IMG/VR virus record: IMGVR_UViG_3300044993_000765
Location: 11,954 to 75,953 of that record
Origin: a virus
Direction: 5' to 3' (one strand)
DNA length: 64,000 nucleotides
The position numbers were made by a program, and so were the translations under genes. Below, piece by piece: positions 1-12,897 of the stretch. Below the pieces are notes generated by a model. The model made no database searches and was not told where the DNA came from. It worked only from the letters and a program-made list of their open reading frames with translations. Each line of letters opens with the position of its first letter. Positions within the stretch are counted from its first letter, which is position 1.

Positions 1-3000
1 GGAAGTCCGGCGCCGCCGGGTCGATCAGCCGATAGTCCAGTCCTGCCTTGTTGGCCTGCCCGGTCAGGGAGAGCGCATTGACCCGGCCCTTGGTCTGCCG
101 GGTCAACTCGCGGATGCGGGCGAAGCGGCCCAGGATCGACTCCGGGTTGAGGTCGATCTTGGGAGTCAGGGCCGCTTCCACGATGCCCATCTGGGCGTCC
201 TCGCGCGTCGGATAGACCGCCAGGGCGCGCGGGTAGGCTTCGCCGGGCACCTCGATCTTGACCCGGAAGCGGCCGTCTTCGGCCTCCTCGATCGTCGCCG
301 TTTCGCCGCGCCCAGGATTGAAACCGAACACCACGCCGCCGCCCTCACTGCGCGCCAGATGCGGGACACCCATGAACTCGGCCACCTGTGGCGAGCGTTC
401 GGCCACCACGATCTGCGGGCGGCCACCCAGCAGGTTCGGAACCGGGAAGCGCCCGCCCTTGGCCGCTTCCTGGGCCTTGAGGTCGTCCAGCGTCACCACG
501 TCCGCGAACGCGCGGTAGTCGGCCATCAGTGACGGCAGGTTCTGGAACTTCGCAAAGCGGGTCGAAGCACGGAAGCCGGCGCCGGAGGGCGCGACCTCGT
601 ACACGTTCTCGATGCTGCCGTACTGCCGCGCCCAGGCATCGAAGACGTGCAAGTCCTTGCGCTTGAGCGTCGGGTATTGCATGTACCGCTGGAGGTTGAA
701 CATTTCGACCAGCGAATTGCTGACCGGCGTACCCGTGGCTGTCACCAGCGGCGCCTTGTCGCCCAGCGTCCCGAACAGCCACTGCGTCTTGACGAACAGA
801 TCGAACGCGCGATCGGAGCCGTTCGGATTGCCCATGCCGGGCACGCGCGACATCGCCGTGGTGTAAAACAGGTTCTTGAATTCATGAAGTTCATCGACGA
901 ACAGGGCATCGACGCCCAACTCGTCGAAGGTCAGCACGCCGTCGCGTTGGCCGATGTTCGCCAGCTTCTGCTTGACCTTGGCCTCCAAGCGTGCGCGGAT
1001 GCCCTCCATGTCGCGCACGATGCCGCGGTCGCCGCGCTCGCGCTTCATCTGTTCGATGAGGCTGGCGATCTCGTCGATCTGTTCGGTCAGGATGCGGGTC
1101 TCGGTCTCGGCCGGCAGCCCGATCTTCTTCAGCGAGGAATGGCCGACGATGATCGCGTCCCAATCGCCGGTCACGATGCGGGAAAACAGCTTCTTGCGGT
1201 TCTCCCGCGTGAAATCGTCCGGTTCCGCCGCCAGCACCACGGCCCCCGGATACAGCCGGGCGAATTCGGTGCGCCACTGCACGGTCAGATGATTGGGCAC
1301 GGCGAACAGCGGCTTGCGCGCGACACCGAGCCGTCGCATTTCCATCGCGATCGCGACCATCTGGAAGGTCTTGCCGGCACCGACGACATGATCGAGCAGC
1401 AGTTGACGCGATTGCAGGCCACGCCACACCCCGTTCTGCTGGTGCGCGAGCAGGGTCAGGCCGGGACTCATGCCCGGCAGGGTCAGATGACTGCCGTCGT
1501 AGCGCCGCTCGACGGTGCGGTTCATCTTGTCGTTGTAGAGCGCAAGCAGGCGCTCGGCCCGCTCGGGGTCGCGCCAAACCCAGGCCCGCCATTCGGCCCG
1601 CAGCGCGTTCTGTTTCTCGCGGGCGCGTTCGGTTTCGGCTTCCAGCACAATGCGTTCGATCTTGCCGTCGCCATGTTTGATCGTCTTGGTCACGACCACC
1701 GCGCGCCCGGCGAGGGTCGCCTGGAAAATCTCGGTCGCGCCCATCTCCTTCGTGCCCCAGGTCGAGGCATTCAGTACCCGATCCGGTTCGCCGACGACGT
1801 TCACCAGCCACAGGCCCGACCCGCGCACATAGGTCATGCGCGCGTTCGCGCCCGTCACCTCCCGATGGAAAGCTTGCAGATCCTCTGCCGGCAGGAACGG
1901 AGCGCCGAGCGCGATGGTGATCTCGCTGGGCGTCTTGTCGCGCGGAATGACCTTGGACAACGCCCCGACGTTGCGGGCGAAGCGCGGATCGCGCCGGGCC
2001 GCGTCCTTGGCTTCGACGAGCTTGGTTTTCACATCGCCCGACAGGTAGTCGTCGGCCGTGACCAGATTGCCGTCCGGCGTTTCGTACACCAGCGGGCCGA
2101 GTTCCTTGACGAGCGCGGTACTGTCCTTGCCGTAGACCTCGGTCATGTAGTCCAGGTCCAGACGGCCACGGTAGTTCAGGCTGGCGAGGTAGGCGTCGCG
2201 CGCACTGTGGACGGTCACGAAATCCGACGGCGGGAACAGCACGCGACGACGGAAGATATCGGCTTTCGTCGCCTTCGGGGCGCGCGGCTCGATGCCCTCG
2301 CGCTTGGCGACGGTCTCGCTCACGCCGGCGTCGTAGTCGAACTCCAGTGCCAGAAGCAGGCTGGCGTCCGGGTCGTCGAAGAACAGGCTACGGTTGGTCC
2401 GCGATGCGCTGAGGTGGCCGTATCGCTTGAGGAAGGCGTCATAGCGATCGTTGAGCAGACGACGGTTGGCCTCGATCTGCGCCTCGCTCGCGTCCGCGGC
2501 GCGTTCCAGGCGCATCTGCTGGCGCAGCACGTCGCGAATCTCGATCATGCCGCGCATGCGCGCCTCGGCGGTCGCACCGGGCGCCGTCCACGGCGCCGCT
2601 TGCGGCTCGCCCATCCGGTCCTCGCCCCGGATCATGATCCGCCCCTCGGCGTCGATGAAGTAGGCGCCGACCTTCACCCCCTCGGGCACCGCACTGGCGG
2701 TCATCGCCTCGGTGCGGTCGATCGGGCTGTAGATGCCCTCCGGCAACGTCCGCGCCCATGCCGTCAGTTGCGCGGCCAGATCGCCGGAAGGGGCGACGGT
2801 GTAGTCGTTGGCCCGGTACATGGTGCCGCCGGCCGTCTGCGTGCCGAGGATATGATCCGGGTGATCGACGTACCAGGGGTTGATGCGGAAGGAGAACGTC
2901 TCGCCCGTGGTCGGGTGTTCTAGCGTCTGTTCGACGGTCTGCACCCAGCGCAGGCGCGCGGCCCGCGTGTCGTCGCTCGGCGGGTCGGTGTCCGGGGCGC

Positions 3001-6000
3001 GCTTCTGGAGCACGATGATATCGGTCACGACCTCGGTGCCGGCGTTCTCGGCGAACGCGGTGTCGGGCAGGCGCGCGGCGGCGATCAGATCCGCCCGCTC
3101 CGCGATCCACTGCCGCACGCGACTGTCTTTGGCGTCCAGAAACTGACGCGACACCACCATCATCAGCACGCCGCCCGGCCGTAGCTTGTCGATCGACTTG
3201 GCGAAGAAGTAGTTGTGGATGCTGAAGCCCGAATACGGGCTGCGCTCAGAATCGACGATGGGTTCGCTACCGAAGGGCGGATTGCCGATCGCCACGTCGA
3301 AAAATTCGCTCGGGACCGCCACGTCCTGAAACCCGCTCTGGCGAATGTGCGCTTTCGGATAGAGCGCGGCGGCGATTTGCTGGGTCAGCGGATCGAGTTC
3401 GACGCCGTAGAGCGTGGAAGCGTTCCGCAGCTTCGCCGGCATCCCGCCGAAGAAATGGCCAATGCCGACCGCCGGTTCCAGAATGCGCCCGCGGGTGACG
3501 CCCAGACGCACCAGTGCGGAGTACATGCCGTCGATCACGGGCTTGCTGGTGTAGTGGGCGTTGAGCGTGGACGCGCGCGCCGCGCGCCATTCGGCATCCG
3601 TCAGCAGGCCCTGAAGCTCGGCGCGGACTTTCGCCCATTGGGCATTGGCCGGATCGAAGACGCCCTTCAGCGCACCCCAACCGACGTAGCGCGCGAGTTG
3701 GCGACGCTCTTCCGGCGACGCCGGCCGCTGTTCGGCGGCCATCGCCTTGACGATGCGGATCGCAGCGAGATTGTCCCGCGCCTTGCGCGCGAGCCCGCCT
3801 TTGCCCAGATCGTCGGCCAAGCCCTCGACGGCCTGCTCGGCTGTATCCACTTCCGTCGCGGTGGCGGCGACAACGCCGGCCTCTGGCCCCGCGGCAGGCT
3901 CGGCCTGCGGCGACGCGGTCTCGGCCACAACGGAAGAGGCCGCAGGATCGTCGATCGCTGCGGCCTCTTGGGTCAGGCGCTCTCGCTGCCCGGTTCGGGC
4001 GGAGGGGGATCGTCGTCGTCGGTCGTTGGTGGCTCCAGCGACAACTCCCACACCTGCGCCTTCTCCCAGCTCGACAGATGATTCAGGCTCGTATCGGCCT
4101 TCGCCCGTTCCTCCTCGGCGGTCTGGTTCGCCAGCGCCTCCAGGTAGTATCCCGACCGGATCAGTTTCTGCACCCGCTTGGGCCAACCCAGCATCCAGCG
4201 GTTCGCGACCTCGCGCGCGGTCGGCGACATCGCCAGCAGTTTCGCGCGCACGTCGGCGGGATAAGCGTTCGGTTTGACCAAGTCCTGCATCGGGGGTGTC
4301 CTCCGGGTTCGCGGCGTCTGCCGCCTCGTTCAGCGTCGTGTCGGTACTGGTGGCGGCGGCAGCGTCGACAGTGACAACGCGCCCTCCGTCGACGATGTCG
4401 GGTCCCATGCCTCCTGCACCCGCACCGTCTCCTGCATCAAAGCGGCCAGATACTCTCCCGAGTCGATCAGGGCGCGCGCCCGCATCGGTCTCGTTCGCAT
4501 CCAGTGGTTGGCGATCTGCGTCGCCAAGGGCGACATCGATTCCAGGGCGATCCGTGCCGCGGGCGGATACCGCTCCGGTCTCAACAGGATCGTCACTGCC
4601 CACTGCCTCCCTCGATGCCAGGTCCCTGCCATTGTCGGCCCGACGCCCCGCGTCCGTCGACAGGCTCGGCGCGATCTGGACATCTGCCCACAACTGATTG
4701 GCACTACTGGACAGGGTGATGATGCCGTCCGCGATGACATAGCGCGCCCCGTAGGCTCCGCCGGTGTTGACCGCTCCGGCCTGCTCGAACGCCCGACGAG
4801 CCGCGGCCATCGCCGAGTGGACTTCGGTGACATGGGCGAACGCCGCCGGAAACGGGACCCGCCCGGACTGACCTGAACGCACCTGCGCAACCAGCCCGTC
4901 CACGAAATCCGCCAGGATCGCAGCATTGCCTGTGGGTTGCCTTGCGCTTTCCGTCGCCGCATCTTCCACAGTCTGTGCCGAGGCGGTCGACTCGATGACA
5001 GGTGCAGCGATCTTCGTCCAGCGATCGGACCAGGGCACCTCCCGGCGTTGCTCGATCCGGCCATCGTGGCTCACCGTGATCGTCTGTCCATCGTCTAGGC
5101 GCACCCAGGGGAATCCGGACTTGGCGAACAGCGTGCCTTGGGCCGTCTGCGGCGCACCAAGCATCAGATTGCGCGATGTCGCCTGCACGCGGTCGCCGAT
5201 GGCGAGTCCCGCCGCCGCCAGGACCGAAAGCCGCCGACTCCGGTTGCCCTCGTTCATCTGGTCGGCCAGTCGTTGCAGGACCGGCAGTAGGCGACCGTAC
5301 TCCGCGGTCGCCCGATATGCCTGTTTGCCACCGAACGCGCGTGCACGCTGCGCGACCCACTGATTCGCCTCGGCGTAGCTCCCGAACCTCGGAAACGTCT
5401 CGACCGGCGCACGCGCCTCCGCCTCGCGCTGGGCTCGCCGCTCCGCCTCCCGGGATTGTTCGGTCGCGCGGTCGGTACCGGCCCAACGATAAATCGCGTC
5501 CTCAGATGCCGAACGTCCACGCGGCAGAGTGATACCCGTCGTCGCAGCGAAAAGTGCACGACTCGCCGGATTCATCTTGGCATCGCCCAGATTGCGTTTA
5601 AGCAAACCGCGCGCATCACGGCGCTCGATCAGATCGATCAGTTCGTCTGCGGCCTTCTCGTAGAAGCCGCTCTCCTCATCGGTGACGTTCGGTCGCTTCC
5701 GGCGCATCGTCTCCACGAACATCCTGCGCAGCGCCGGACGATCCAATCCAACGGAGTTTTCGAGTGGCGGCGCGTCGTTCTCGGATGCCACCGCCTGATC
5801 GACAGACACCGACACGGTTTCCCGTTCAGGCGGAAGATTTACAGGTGCACTCTGCGCATCGGTCAGCATACGGCGGTGCAGGTTGCCCCCTGGGATCGGC
5901 TGTCCTCTCGCATCGAACAGCGGCAAATAGTTGCGTTCGCCCTCCCAATCGGAACGACGCACACGTACCTTGGTATTGCCACGCTTTTCCCGAAAGCCCA

Positions 6001-7684
6001 TCAACGCTTCGCCTTCAGGCGTAGTGACGTTGAGAACGACCCCTTTCGGCGTGGCTCCGGTCGATTCCACTGCTATCGATTGGGGTGCTGGCGGTCGATA
6101 GACTGATGCCTGCGCTCCGATTCGCGACGACAGCACCGCTTCATTCGGCGCCGCCGCGGGATGACGGGCGCGCGCCGCGTTCACGTCTGGCGTAAGCCCC
6201 AAGGAATCGCGCTCAAGCGCAAGGGCTGTCGCATCCCGATCGAACGCTCCGCGCTGCGCGGCGGGGATCGCAATACCCTCGGGCGTGACCATCGTCACCG
6301 GCTCCGGAAGCGCCAGCAACCGCCGATAAGTCGCCGGTGACTGTCCCGTATTGGGAGTCGATGATGCTTGTCCGACCTGGCGGTCGCTGGCGAGGGTCTC
6401 CATCGCCTGCAGGAACGCGGCATCACCCTGCGGCTGCGGCCGCTCGCGGAGGGCACCGATACCCCCGAATACGCCGCCGCCCAAACCACCGGCTGCCGCG
6501 CTGTCGAAGTACGCCGTGAGTGCATCCGCATCAGTCAAGGACTGTTGGCCGGCGAACCGCGTCGCGCCTTCCTGTACCGCTTCGGTCGCACCCTCCCCGA
6601 CCGCATTGCGCGCGAAGCCGGCCGCGACGCGATCCTTCAGTGCTCCGCCGCGCACACCCCGCAATAGCGTATCGGCCAGCAGCGCATCGCCGAACGTCTC
6701 CGCAGCCCCATAGATTGCGCCGCCGGTCAGCACGCGCCCGAGATCCACCTCGGGGCCTCCGGTCTGCTCGGTCGCGAAGGCCGCGTTATAGGACTCGCCC
6801 ATACCGCGCGCGGTCGAGGCCGCCGCCAGAGCCCCCGTCGCACCCAGCGTACGCATCGTCTCTTTCGCCAGTTGATCGCGCATCAGGCCCAATGCCTCGC
6901 GCTTGGCAACCGCCTCGGTCGCACCCATGGCGACCTGCCTGGTGACGTAATCGGCAGCCAAGTTCGCGATCTGCGCCTGGACTTCATCGCGGACCAGTTT
7001 CTTGCCGAAGAAACCGCCGACCGCGCCGCCGATGGTGCCCGGCCCCGGTGCCGCACCGCTGCCGGCGGCGGCACCAGCCACCGAGAACATCAACGACTCC
7101 AGTACGCTCGGCAGCATCTGACCGAGGTTGAACTGCGCCCAATCCGCCAAGTTGCCGAGTGTGCCGGTGATGCCGTCGCCCGTCGCCCAAGCGCGACTCA
7201 AGCTGTCGGTCGGACGCGCATCCTGCGCCTGCCGTTCAAGGAGACCTTGCGCACGCAAGGCCCATTCTCCCGCAGTCTCGTCGGCGCCGAACAGATCCGC
7301 ACCCAGCGCACCCAGGCCGTACAGTGCTGCCTGCGTACCTGGCCAGTAGGTCTGCATGCCGCGCCCGAAATCGCCGGCATCGGTGGGCGGCGGAACATCC
7401 TGCAGGAACTGACGGGTCCACTGTGCCGCATCGCCCCCCTGCTGTTGCGCCAACCAAGGCAAGATCACATTGGCGTAATCGGCGTGAATACGCTGGCGAT
7501 CCTCGGGTGCGGCCATATTCCAGCCCCGTCGAGCCTTGACGGTCTCCCAGCGCAGGTCGGGGATTTCGGCCGGAGCAAGCGATGGCACGGCCGGTGCCGG
7601 CGACGAAGTCACCGGGTCATTCAGGCGTGCGGTCAGCGCAGGATCGACAAAAGCCGATCCGAACGGGTTGTAAGCGTCGGTCAT
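1..7684 (-). CDS. Giant DarB-like protein (N-terminal virion/injection region, N6-adenine methyltransferase, SNF2 helicase); 3' end runs off the window, >2,500 aa
   Basis: ATG at 7684 (MTDAYNPFG...) is in frame with the MTase motifs ILEPAVGIG and IGNPPF and the helicase motifs HVVGAGKT, DELHEFKN and TGTPVSN. The ORF track lists no stop in this frame; the segments I read by hand were open. Confidence 0.85.
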   Translation of the reverse strand, partial: MTDAYNPFGSAFVDPALTARLNDPVTSSPAPAVPSLAPAEIPDLRWETVKARRGWNMAAPEDRQRIHADYANVILPWLAQQQGGDAAQWTRQFLQDVPPPTDAGDFGRGMQTYWPGTQAALYGLGALGADLFGADETAGEWALRAQGLLERQAQDARPTDSLSRAWATGDGITGTLGNLADWAQFNLGQMLPSVLESLMFSVAGAAAGSGAAPGPGTIGGAVGGFFGKKLVRDEVQAQIANLAADYVTRQVAMGATEAVAKREALGLMRDQLAKETMRTLGATGALAAASTARGMGESYNAAFATEQTGGPEVDLGRVLTGGAIYGAAETFGDALLADTLLRGVRGGALKDRVAAGFARNAVGEGATEAVQEGATRFAGQQSLTDADALTAYFDSAAAGGLGGGVFGGIGALRERPQPQGDAAFLQAMETLASDRQVGQASSTPNTGQSPATYRRLLALPEPVTMVTPEGIAIPAAQRGAFDRDATALALERDSLGLTPDVNAARARHPAAAPNEAVLSSRIGAQASVYRPPAPQSIAVESTGATPKGVVLNVTTPEGEALMGFREKRGNTKVRVRRSDWEGERNYLPLFDARGQPIPGGNLHRRMLTDAQSAPVNLPPERETVSVSVDQAVASENDAPPLENSVGLDRPALRRMFVETMRRKRPNVTDEESGFYEKAADELIDLIERRDARGLLKRNLGDAKMNPASRALFAATTGITLPRGRSASEDAIYRWAGTDRATEQSREAERRAQREAEARAPVETFPRFGSYAEANQWVAQRARAFGGKQAYRATAEYGRLLPVLQRLADQMNEGNRSRRLSVLAAAGLAIGDRVQATSRNLMLGAPQTAQGTLFAKSGFPWVRLDDGQTITVSHDGRIEQRREVPWSDRWTKIAAPVIESTASAQTVEDAATESARQPTGNAAILADFVDGLVAQVRSGQSGRVPFPAAFAHVTEVHSAMAAARRAFEQAGAVNTGGAYGARYVIADGIITLSSSANQLWADVQIAPSLSTDAGRRADNGRDLASREAVGSDDPVETGAVSARGTDRPGIDVALGDADRQPLDANETDAGARPDRLGRVSGRFDAGDGAGAGGMGPDIVDGGRVVTVDAAAATSTDTTLNEAADAANPEDTPDAGLGQTERLSRRRARETAGDVADRARGREPLDAGLAQAGAETDPVGILPGGAGEPDRRGGTGEGRYEPESSVELGEGAGVGVVAGATNDRRRRSPSARTGQRERLTQEAAAIDDPAASSVVAETASPQAEPAAGPEAGVVAATATEVDTAEQAVEGLADDLGKGGLARKARDNLAAIRIVKAMAAEQRPASPEERRQLARYVGWGALKGVFDPANAQWAKVRAELQGLLTDAEWRAARASTLNAHYTSKPVIDGMYSALVRLGVTRGRILEPAVGIGHFFGGMPAKLRNASTLYGVELDPLTQQIAAALYPKAHIRQSGFQDVAVPSEFFDVAIGNPPFGSEPIVDSERSPYSGFSIHNYFFAKSIDKLRPGGVLMMVVSRQFLDAKDSRVRQWIAERADLIAAARLPDTAFAENAGTEVVTDIIVLQKRAPDTDPPSDDTRAARLRWVQTVEQTLEHPTTGETFSFRINPWYVDHPDHILGTQTAGGTMYRANDYTVAPSGDLAAQLTAWARTLPEGIYSPIDRTEAMTASAVPEGVKVGAYFIDAEGRIMIRGEDRMGEPQAAPWTAPGATAEARMRGMIEIRDVLRQQMRLERAADASEAQIEANRRLLNDRYDAFLKRYGHLSASRTNRSLFFDDPDASLLLALEFDYDAGVSETVAKREGIEPRAPKATKADIFRRRVLFPPSDFVTVHSARDAYLASLNYRGRLDLDYMTEVYGKDSTALVKELGPLVYETPDGNLVTADDYLSGDVKTKLVEAKDAARRDPRFARNVGALSKVIPRDKTPSEITIALGAPFLPAEDLQAFHREVTGANARMTYVRGSGLWLVNVVGEPDRVLNASTWGTKEMGATEIFQATLAGRAVVVTKTIKHGDGKIERIVLEAETERAREKQNALRAEWRAWVWRDPERAERLLALYNDKMNRTVERRYDGSHLTLPGMSPGLTLLAHQQNGVWRGLQSRQLLLDHVVGAGKTFQMVAIAMEMRRLGVARKPLFAVPNHLTVQWRTEFARLYPGAVVLAAEPDDFTRENRKKLFSRIVTGDWDAIIVGHSSLKKIGLPAETETRILTEQIDEIASLIEQMKRERGDRGIVRDMEGIRARLEAKVKQKLANIGQRDGVLTFDELGVDALFVDELHEFKNLFYTTAMSRVPGMGNPNGSDRAFDLFVKTQWLFGTLGDKAPLVTATGTPVSNSLVEMFNLQRYMQYPTLKRKDLHVFDAWARQYGSIENVYEVAPSGAGFRASTRFAKFQNLPSLMADYRAFADVVTLDDLKAQEAAKGGRFPVPNLLGGRPQIVVAERSPQVAEFMGVPHLARSEGGGVVFGFNPGRGETATIEEAEDGRFRVKIEVPGEAYPRALAVYPTREDAQMGIVEAALTPKIDLNPESILGRFARIRELTRQTKGRVNALSLTGQANKAGLDYRLIDPAAPDF
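3973..4290 (-). CDS. Small protein overprinted in an alternative frame inside the DarB-like gene
   Basis: GGAGG SD about 9 nt before ATG; protein-like composition; paralog of 4330..4596. Confidence 0.65.
   Translation of the reverse strand: MQDLVKPNAYPADVRAKLLAMSPTAREVANRWMLGWPKRVQKLIRSGYYLEALANQTAEEERAKADTSLNHLSSWEKAQVWELSLEPPTTDDDDPPPPEPGSESA
4330..4596 (-). CDS. Second overprinted small protein (GTG start, 88 aa), paralog of 3973..4290
   Basis: GGGAGG SD before GTG at 4596; shared motif YP..R..L..MSP.A...AN.WM...P.R...LI.SG.YL.AL. Confidence 0.55.
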   Translation of the reverse strand: MTILLRPERYPPAARIALESMSPLATQIANHWMRTRPMRARALIDSGEYLAALMQETVRVQEAWDPTSSTEGALSLSTLPPPPVPTRR

Positions 7685-11664: not shown

Positions 11665-12897
11665 TCAGGGAGTAAGGAATTCGATTCCGTCTTTGAGCAA
11701 CTTGCTCCTAGCCTTGAGCTGATTTACATCCCGAGGAAGACTCAGAAATTCGTGAAGCTCGGACAGAGAGCGGTAAGACAACGCATTTCCGATCAAAAAC
11801 CAAAAAAGACACTTATAGTAGCTCTGAAGCAGGAAACAATTTGTCCTAGCCTCATTGGTTTGATGCCCGGCGTGGATGCTTGAATTCCGATATTCTCGCA
11901 AGTGCATCAGCACCTGTCGATGATAGTCGGCTTCCTGAAGGATGAAGCAACATCGCTCGACCAGCGCGTCGTAGTCAGCGACCCCCGGAGTCAGCAACAT
12001 CTCAAATGCCCCCCAGAGGCGGATGAAAGCCGTATTCGGGTCTGGCTCATCTAGCGCACCAACATACCTCACCAGGGACTCAGCGATAACCTTTCCAAAC
12101 GGAGAATTCTTGATCCTTCGCATGGCATATCGAGCGTTTTTTTGGACAATTTCTGAATTCTTAAATCGATAAAGTTTTTCTTTCTTATACTCAGGAATAT
12201 ACCAAACCGCCTCTGAAGCCAGTTTTCCACCAGCATGATGAAGCGTCTGGAAACTTCCAAGCCTGATGAGATTGATAGGCTTATGGTCATTTCCACCGAA
12301 CGAGATTTCTAGCGACTTGTTCGCCTCTAGGCACAAGATTCCACGATAAACGTCGAGATAACGCAGAGCCTTGCTAGTAGCCATGTGCGCAGACTTCGCG
12401 TACACCGAGACGCCAATCACGCAATAATCTGAGGGCTCATCTTCTATGCCAAGATGCCTTCCGTTCCGTTCGATCAAATCTTGCCTCGACCCGAACTTTT
12501 TTGGCATCCGCATGCCAAAAAAGTCAATCGATGAATTCAATGCCGAAACTCGTCTCTGCCAAGTGGTCGAATCGAGAGAAATTGAAGTAATCAGTACGAA
12601 TTTTTCTTCTTTCTTGGCGAGCTGTTTATTCAAACCCTTATTGATAGCAGTGATGAAGCTATCAGGTGAAAGGTCCGGACGCGATGCAAAGAGCGCACTG
12701 AATACTAGACCCGCCTTATCCATGTCCTCCGCAACCTGCGGAAATTCGAGCATCGACGAAAGCGCGGCTGCATCCTGGTGAATTTGGAAATCAGCAAAAG
12801 ACGTTGATCCATCTTCGGCAATAGATCGAGTCTTGCCCAACCGCTCAAACACGACCTGAGGCTTAAACTTTTTAGGGTTTTTCCATTTTATCGGCAC
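11665..12897 (-). CDS. Apea-like HEPN domain protein (moron, candidate defence)
   Basis: Lower GC; AFIRLWGAFEMLL...YRNSSIHAG (RxxxxH). Confidence 0.65.
   Translation of the reverse strand: MPIKWKNPKKFKPQVVFERLGKTRSIAEDGSTSFADFQIHQDAAALSSMLEFPQVAEDMDKAGLVFSALFASRPDLSPDSFITAINKGLNKQLAKKEEKFVLITSISLDSTTWQRRVSALNSSIDFFGMRMPKKFGSRQDLIERNGRHLGIEDEPSDYCVIGVSVYAKSAHMATSKALRYLDVYRGILCLEANKSLEISFGGNDHKPINLIRLGSFQTLHHAGGKLASEAVWYIPEYKKEKLYRFKNSEIVQKNARYAMRRIKNSPFGKVIAESLVRYVGALDEPDPNTAFIRLWGAFEMLLTPGVADYDALVERCCFILQEADYHRQVLMHLREYRNSSIHAGHQTNEARTNCFLLQSYYKCLFWFLIGNALSYRSLSELHEFLSLPRDVNQLKARSKLLKDGIEFLTP

Follow-up and report, generated by a model that had tools for sequence, protein, structure and literature searches.

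Can a few hundred bases in the middle of a giant phage gene also carry, in another reading frame, small genes of their own? The question is raised by a provirus in IMG/VR (record IMGVR_UViG_3300044993_000765, 75.9 kb), of which we analyzed the 64,000 nucleotides from base 11954 to base 75953 (referred to below as the window). On the minus strand, positions 2..7684 of the window are occupied by a giant open reading frame (ORF) that encodes a DarB-like polyvalent protein; these are 2561 of its 4759 codons, and the ORF runs past the left window end. Within it, on the same strand and in its +1 frame, lie two short ORFs, namely ORF A (3973..4290; ATG start, TGA stop, 105 aa) and ORF B (4330..4596; GTG start, TGA stop, 88 aa). 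Each has a GGAGG Shine-Dalgarno (SD)-like motif nine bases before its start codon (4300..4304 for A and 4606..4610 for B, both on the minus strand), and their products are paralogous, with 43% identity across 60 residues (BLASTP E 1e-14). A preliminary description of the locus, made from its letters, had reported the two same-strand ORFs, their own GGAGG motifs and their mutual homology, and all of these factual statements hold. Our answer to the question is that A, and probably B, are independently translated genes located wholly within the 4759-aa DarB-like polyvalent gene of a prophage, a reading to which we give a probability of roughly 0.72.

The giant ORF is stop-free over both A and B, where its translation is rich in R, G, A, and D and has no Pfam match. 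Along most of the giant gene, GC content by codon position tracks the host frame, and its third-position value (GC3) is 0.8-0.95 in the methyltransferase (MTase)/helicase part. Between about 4610 and 3950, the GC peak (0.84-0.90) shifts to the first host position, equivalent to the third in the nested frame, and the third host position becomes the poorest (GC 0.44-0.58). Taken alone, this composition shift would suggest a plain artifact, i.e., several genes mistaken for one, with the host frame open only since T is rare at its first position; for that reason it was tested on relatives.

ORF A has 22 close homologs of about 105 aa that are called as stand-alone genes. A profile of A searched against 1.84 billion representatives found 131 clusters at 50% identity, spanning 38-264 aa save for two weak, spurious long matches. 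The motifs ANRWMLGWP..V..L and HLS.WE are near-invariant in the family, and AlphaFold2 models A as five helices (mean pLDDT 74). Its sequence relatives and predicted fold identify A as a genuine family of what appear to be small helical proteins.

Using tblastn and ORF maps, we mapped 63 A-related loci from genomes and IMG/VR. A DarB-like module directly follows A in about 38 of the 63 loci, and in all of these except one (L038) A lies wholly inside a giant ORF, with the host in frame A+2. The preliminary description had proposed asking by tBLASTn whether nested hits recur upstream of DarB MTase domains, and they do. The nested loci range from 0.39 to 0.70 in GC content, and they include the isolated Pseudomonas phage 8P, whose 90-aa copy of A (MT152150.1, 31545-31817; L067:12001-12273) is located in the +1 frame inside a 5145-aa coding sequence (CDS), 8P_023, labeled "structural protein" in GenBank. 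The GenBank record of phage 8P contains no CDS for this 90-aa nested gene, in line with the earlier prediction that standard annotators would miss such genes. A copy of A is also nested in a different kind of host, a 379-aa ORF (5271-6410) ending in a KfrB domain, in a contig of a metagenome-assembled genome (L034; DAIDAS010000021.1). Here A starts with an ATG at 5998 with AGGAGG 8 bases upstream, and the KfrB domain starts where the conserved core of A ends. The last ~33 codons of this A overlap the KfrB domain, which makes that part dual-coding with a real domain.

Besides the nested copies, about 20 loci carry a free-standing A beside genes encoding relaxase/LPD7, a TraI-like helicase, an Rv2179c/RNase T-type exonuclease, or an Eco57I-type methylase. 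Free-standing copies are found in some plasmids and conjugative elements, where they adjoin polyvalent-protein modules, and in plasmid pACP4.3 of Acidovorax carolinensis PGAP calls A as a separate gene, between a C5-MTase gene and the gene of a 2410-aa N-6 methylase. In the high-GC free-standing loci, the neighbors have no Pfam matches, with the exception of one T5orf172 protein. The family tree needs at least six switches between the nested and the free state, which points to repeated fusion across the small gene or fission at the spacer. The term "overprinted", as applied earlier to A and B, implies birth within the host gene, which does not follow, given these switches and the free-standing relatives.

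The frame that selection acts on was examined in 29 nested loci. There, pN/pS in the A frame is 0.12-0.28 for close nested pairs and rises up to 0.65 as sites saturate, vs. 1.3-3.0 in the host frame over A; standard pN/pS is biased in overlapping frames, so these ratios tell which frame dominates and not how strong selection is in absolute terms. In close nested pairs the substitutions concentrate at the third positions of A, and a GC1 > GC2 pattern in the A frame is present in 19 nested loci with GC contents of 0.39-0.70. A purine-rich SD-like motif precedes the start of A in 29 of the 29 nested loci (by hand count of the 20 upstream bases), the ATG start is conserved, and A-frame stops are located 3-50 bases upstream of the start in most loci. 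The sole "motif" of the host frame, LDAGLA, is a shifted reading of ANRWMLGW in A. The nested frame thus carries protein-level constraint and the host frame almost none, which turns the usual picture of overprinting around. Selection on the A frame, the shift in composition, and the recurrence together bear out the earlier proposal that real genes are nested out of frame in a contiguous giant gene, and the check by frame-specific substitution ratios that was suggested with it comes out the same way for A and more weakly for B.

For B, pN/pS is 0.38-1.0, and its support is weaker than that of A. Four loci carry intact copies (88-90 aa, with an SD-like motif and start codon) that form one clade with 99/97 support; three lineages are represented, namely the window with L042, L043/L044, and L006. 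The SD of B is identical in L042 and reads AGGAGG in L043. Conservation is confined to the N-terminal ~57 residues, and the C-terminus has diverged. We lean toward B being functional, and consider it rather unlikely that B on its own is a slowly decaying copy sheltered by the need of the host for an in-frame spacer. The earlier view of both ORFs as real genes accordingly stands well for A and less so for B. The B copies group weakly, on long branches, with A genes of the Variovorax/L054 lineage and not with the A of their own locus; we are unsure, but B may have come in from another lineage instead of arising by duplication in place.

Both A and B, or either of them, might be unexpressed relics of free genes that were overrun when the flanking genes fused, and that are preserved since the host needs a spacer. 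Such relics would suit the interchange of free and nested states, as well as the near-neutral ratios of B between distant lineages and its diverged C-terminus, and their decay would be slowed by host-frame selection, which bars frameshifting indels. However, a decaying frame would be expected to gather stops of its own, as the third frame (A+1) has (2-14 stops), whereas the ORF, start codon, and SD-like motif of A are intact in every one of the 29 nested loci, down to 33-45% identity. The motifs ANRWMLGWP and HLS.WE survive over this range, and the low pN/pS of close nested pairs, with their substitutions piled at third positions, likewise stands against decay. A closed or unconserved A frame, which the preliminary description had named as evidence to the contrary, was thus not seen, and we regard the relic explanation as improbable.

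The artifact suggested by composition, in which the "giant gene" is in fact several genes (for the N-terminal protein, B, A, and the DarB-like protein) and the host frame owes its openness only to the scarcity of T at the position that matches the GC-rich third base of A, appears very unlikely once the relatives are considered. It does accord with the lack of conservation in the host-frame protein sequence. Moreover, synonymous shuffling, with the A protein and its codon usage fixed, leaves the host frame free of stops over A by itself with a chance of 0.07 in the window, at 66% GC, and of 0.002 to 1.0 per locus; seven of the 20 free-standing copies are also stop-free in the host-equivalent frame, the other 13 having stops. 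Against this, not one host-frame stop is present inside A in the 29 nested loci, which represent 13 lineages, and the joint chance of this is 10^-8.3 even using the largest value of each lineage. The frame is also open at GC contents of 0.39-0.57, in ORFs of 2100-3900 codons, and chance cannot explain nesting in low-GC loci such as L064 (GC 0.41, giant ORF of at least 3271 codons), L046 (GC 0.53), and L026 (GC 0.39). In no locus is the upstream module ended by a stop, so ribosomes must read on. L023 and L065 have no start codon from a point upstream of A to the conserved module, and L026 has in this interval a TTG within A as its only one, which implies that the host ORF begins upstream of A (in L026, at the latest within A). 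The gap between the stop of A and the module varies from ~5 to 314 bases, yet the frame is preserved wherever the module directly follows A, the sole exception being L038, in which stops separate A from the DarB-like module. In phage 8P, GenBank itself has a single CDS of 5145 aa. The pattern across lineages indicates that the host frame is kept open by selection, which would leave the spacer translated and its sequence free to vary; ribosomes making the giant protein would presumably pass through the overlap. The earlier characterization of the host frame as linker-like sequence just before the MTase domain is apt, as it is open, unconserved, and without a Pfam match.

A and B might instead be part of the giant protein, as a domain that is read through programmed or artifactual frameshifting (+1, then back). 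The conserved core of A ends almost exactly where the next host domain starts, which would suit a domain boundary. This explanation is nevertheless scarcely credible, given that the A frame is bounded by stops, at its end in all loci and in most of them a few codons upstream of the start, that the ATG and SD-like motif are conserved, that free-standing homologs of 88-105 aa are annotated as separate genes, that not one of the 131 clusters is fused in frame to a large protein, and that every lineage would need two compensating shifts.

In addition to the bias of pN/pS in overlapping frames, several points weigh against A and B as nested genes tied to this host. About 18 free-standing loci have no DarB-like module within 6 kb. 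No family, fold, or solved-structure match constrains the function of A. The weak ratios and unconserved C-terminus of B count here as well, and host-frame selection against frameshifts would help to preserve a dead copy of B, too.

Pfam, PADLOC, and the sequences of solved structures yielded no usable function match for A, and in PHROGs only B has a match (phrog_25161, E 0.008), with nothing usable for function. Foldseek of A against PDB and BFVD gave a best E of 2.9, and the best hit of a wide VIA-align search (Z 4.9) is within the range for any small helical bundle. In the ESM Atlas, A matches just unnamed clusters of the A family itself. Two candidate identities were rejected. A resemblance to TnpV-like proteins had been suggested at the outset, but none of 43 family members matches TnpV (PF14198), even at E 1; the lone trace of TnpV is a feature match in the ESM Atlas (rank 24, score 0.75) to a cluster with TnpV in 11% of its members. 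The other candidate was Ulx, a small protein of phage P1 encoded next to darB, for which hhalign gave a probability of 0.6% over 13 columns; Ulx is located downstream of darB, and A upstream. When residues 1-450 of the DarB-like module were co-folded with A, the score was 0.00, and we counted the run neither way.

The host gene is a DarB-like polyvalent protein gene, with an N6-adenine MTase followed by an SF2 helicase, plus an LPD domain. The full ORF of 4759 codons ends at base 5358 of the provirus record. Its first part, on the minus strand like all of the modules below, is an N-terminal module of ~1028 aa without a Pfam match (4600..7684), followed by a host-frame spacer of ~260 codons (3818..4599), in which the open frame is kept and the protein sequence is not conserved, and then by the DarB-like module (2..3817 in the window), where the motif region of the N6-adenine MTase falls at 3089-3331 and the ATP-binding region of the helicase at 1109-1432. 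Relatives keep the N-terminal module until just before ORF B or ORF A, with tblastn matches stopping at query residues 1009-1028 in L003-L007 and L042-L047. The conserved start of the DarB-like module ("GKGGL.RK.RDN.AAI") is at ~3817, ~155 bases past the stop of ORF A. Pfam domains in the giant protein are an Eco57I-type MTase, ResIII/SNF2, Helicase_C, and LPD39 (E 1.4e-30 for LPD39), and in BLASTP the DarB of P1 is collinear with the part after the spacer (MTase 28% identity, E 1e-22; helicase E 8e-10). This collinearity and the Pfam domains, including LPD39, assign the giant protein to the polyvalent proteins described in Iyer et al. 2017 (PMC5512222). Upstream of the giant gene lie genes with matches to an internal virion protein family (phrog_511) and to a lysozyme/tail family, and, judged by this gene context, the giant polyvalent protein is probably a virion protein.

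In the N-terminal module (window 5850-7534), GC3 is 0.54-0.78 vs. 0.8-0.96 in the DarB-like part; together with the lack of a Pfam match, this suggests that the module may have a different origin from the remainder of the giant gene. Directly downstream of the giant gene is a gene for a 1746-aa RHS-repeat protein (record 1-5241, L066; RHS_repeat E 2e-47, DUF6531), i.e., an RHS gene of the polymorphic-toxin type adjoins the polyvalent protein gene to the left of the window.

A few further observations concern the nested loci and their relatives. In a Rubrivivax-type lineage (L008/L048), one in-frame stop is present within the DarB-like module, ~748 bases past the start of A; L008 and L048 are one contig range in two collections and thus a single observation, and the break may mean that the gene is split or a pseudogene, or that the sequence contains an error. 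In three loci (L023:5820-5870, L037:5937-5990, and L039:5940-5990), "short" DarB-like ORFs start with QLDLF-like peptides upstream of the nested gene, reading "FQLDLFG", "QANLFG", and "QNGLFD", and a second peptide, "KPQLDLF", is found after the nested gene in L037 (~6400) and L039. These peptides resemble the consensus for binding of the beta sliding clamp, QL[SD]LF; if they were such motifs, clamp binding would explain why the N-terminal peptide must remain fused across the nested gene. At the third positions of A, G is frequent (0.32-0.59) and T scarce (0.03-0.21), which holds even for free-standing copies in genomes of 40-50% GC (the loci concerned are L021, L022, L025, L031, L032, and L035, free-standing, and L023, L026, and L064, nested). 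The bias resembles the first-position signature of a second frame; the free copies may descend from nested ones. Extra avoidance of T at the third positions of A in low-GC nested copies was also considered as a mark of host-frame selection and was dropped, the free-standing copies being equally T-poor.

Under the preferred reading, in which A and probably B are nested genes, the giant gene would be one translation unit consisting of the N-terminal module, the ~260-codon spacer, the DarB-like module, and a C-terminal part with LPD39. Ribosomes would read through the spacer, which need only stay open and in frame, the information in its DNA being that of the nested frame. On the late mRNA of the giant gene, ribosomes would initiate internally at the SD and start codon of A and of B, and the products would be free helical proteins of ~90-105 aa in the producer cell, alongside the giant protein. 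Lineages have switched repeatedly between a "separate" and an "embedded" layout.

As to what A does, one tentative possibility is that it is an accessory factor, acting as a free protein, for the polyvalent module next to it (in most cases the DarB-like methylase/helicase), with a possible part in assembly, packaging, or activity control in the producer cell; the tight and frequent position before the DarB-like module favors this role. Just as tentatively, A may be an autonomous small effector or regulator belonging to the same mobile-element toolkit, as favored by the free-standing copies beside unrelated modules. The occurrence of these copies beside relaxase, exonuclease, or other genes also weakens the idea of a dedicated partner, and A might serve some other function altogether. 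The roles named in the preliminary description (chaperone, inhibitor, or packaging partner) are speculative. A bolder proposal, which we consider unlikely, is that the nesting itself is functional and selected, with A as an obligate partner of the DarB module (a chaperone, packaging adaptor, or brake) whose synthesis would be set by the ribosome traffic on the giant ORF, and with the A-bearing spacer as a portable junction cassette. The points that can be cited for such a cassette are the recurrence of A before both the DarB-like module and KfrB, and the G-rich, T-poor third positions in free copies. If this were true, the embedded layout would fix the ratio and timing of the partner A relative to the giant protein, and the A-bearing spacer would serve when polyvalent proteins are assembled from modules.

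The spanin genes Rz1/Rz of phage lambda are a known case of such an arrangement, with embedded, overlapped, and separated variants across phages. Like Rz1, A is small, has a start codon of its own, and lies in the +1 frame of a larger gene on the same strand that encloses it entirely, and the same gene pair is embedded in some phages and separate in others. Unlike Rz1/Rz, where both frames encode constrained, interacting proteins, the host frame here is an unconstrained spacer within a giant multidomain protein, and the nested A belongs to a helical family unrelated to Rz1. In Bacillus subtilis, srfAB contains comS in another frame (D'Souza 1994 and Hamoen 1995, via bioRxiv 10.1101/520783; PMC12915044), and comS and rpmH in rnpA were listed as the only bacterial cases known before Ribo-RET (bioRxiv 10.1101/520783). 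Like A, comS is small and translated on its own from within a very large multi-module gene, out of its frame, and nesting of this type ties the expression of the small gene to the host operon. It differs in that it encodes a 46-aa regulator in one Bacillus group and overlaps a functional NRPS domain, whereas the A family is present in many mobile elements of Pseudomonadota, also occurs free-standing, and overlaps an inter-module spacer only. By their arrangement, A and B can be classed as embedded out-of-frame genes of the Rz1/Rz or comS/srfAB type.

The host protein shares with P1 DarB and the other polyvalent proteins (PMC5512222) the methylase-helicase core, LPD39, and the internal virion protein genes as neighbors; unlike P1 DarB, it is twice the size and has an extra N-terminal module of ~1030 aa. 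In the text of Iyer et al. 2017 (PMC5512222), the words "overlapping" and "frameshift" are absent, and the single uses of "embedded" and "reading frame" refer to peptidase domains and neighboring ORFs, not to nested genes. In the limited literature covered, we found no earlier description of nested genes in polyvalent or DarB-like genes, which is not proof of their absence. Classical viral overprinting, such as that of phiX174 E in D (PMC8227390), resembles the present case in having two frames with the overlap tolerated in one of them. There, however, the novel frame is usually young and less constrained, whereas here the nested frame is conserved and has free-standing relatives, which makes capture by gene fusion at least as likely as birth in place.

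Few same-strand nested genes have been confirmed in bacteria or phages; for bacteria, a review of the field put the number at two before ribosome profiling. The case of A comes with unusually broad comparative evidence. Its unusual features are the constrained nested frame, the giant polyvalent host, and the recurrence over many lineages and two kinds of host. Annotation pipelines are left with a dilemma, as they drop the small gene or must break the giant one. Since A is present in phage 8P, which is isolated and culturable, direct testing is possible. Little is understood of how the DarB-type and polyvalent anti-restriction proteins are assembled, packaged, and controlled, and the nested A would add a hidden conserved gene to them. 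It would also illustrate a route to overlapping genes other than birth in place, in which modules fuse across a small gene whose DNA then doubles as the inter-domain linker, and in this family such fusion would have happened, or been reversed, several times.

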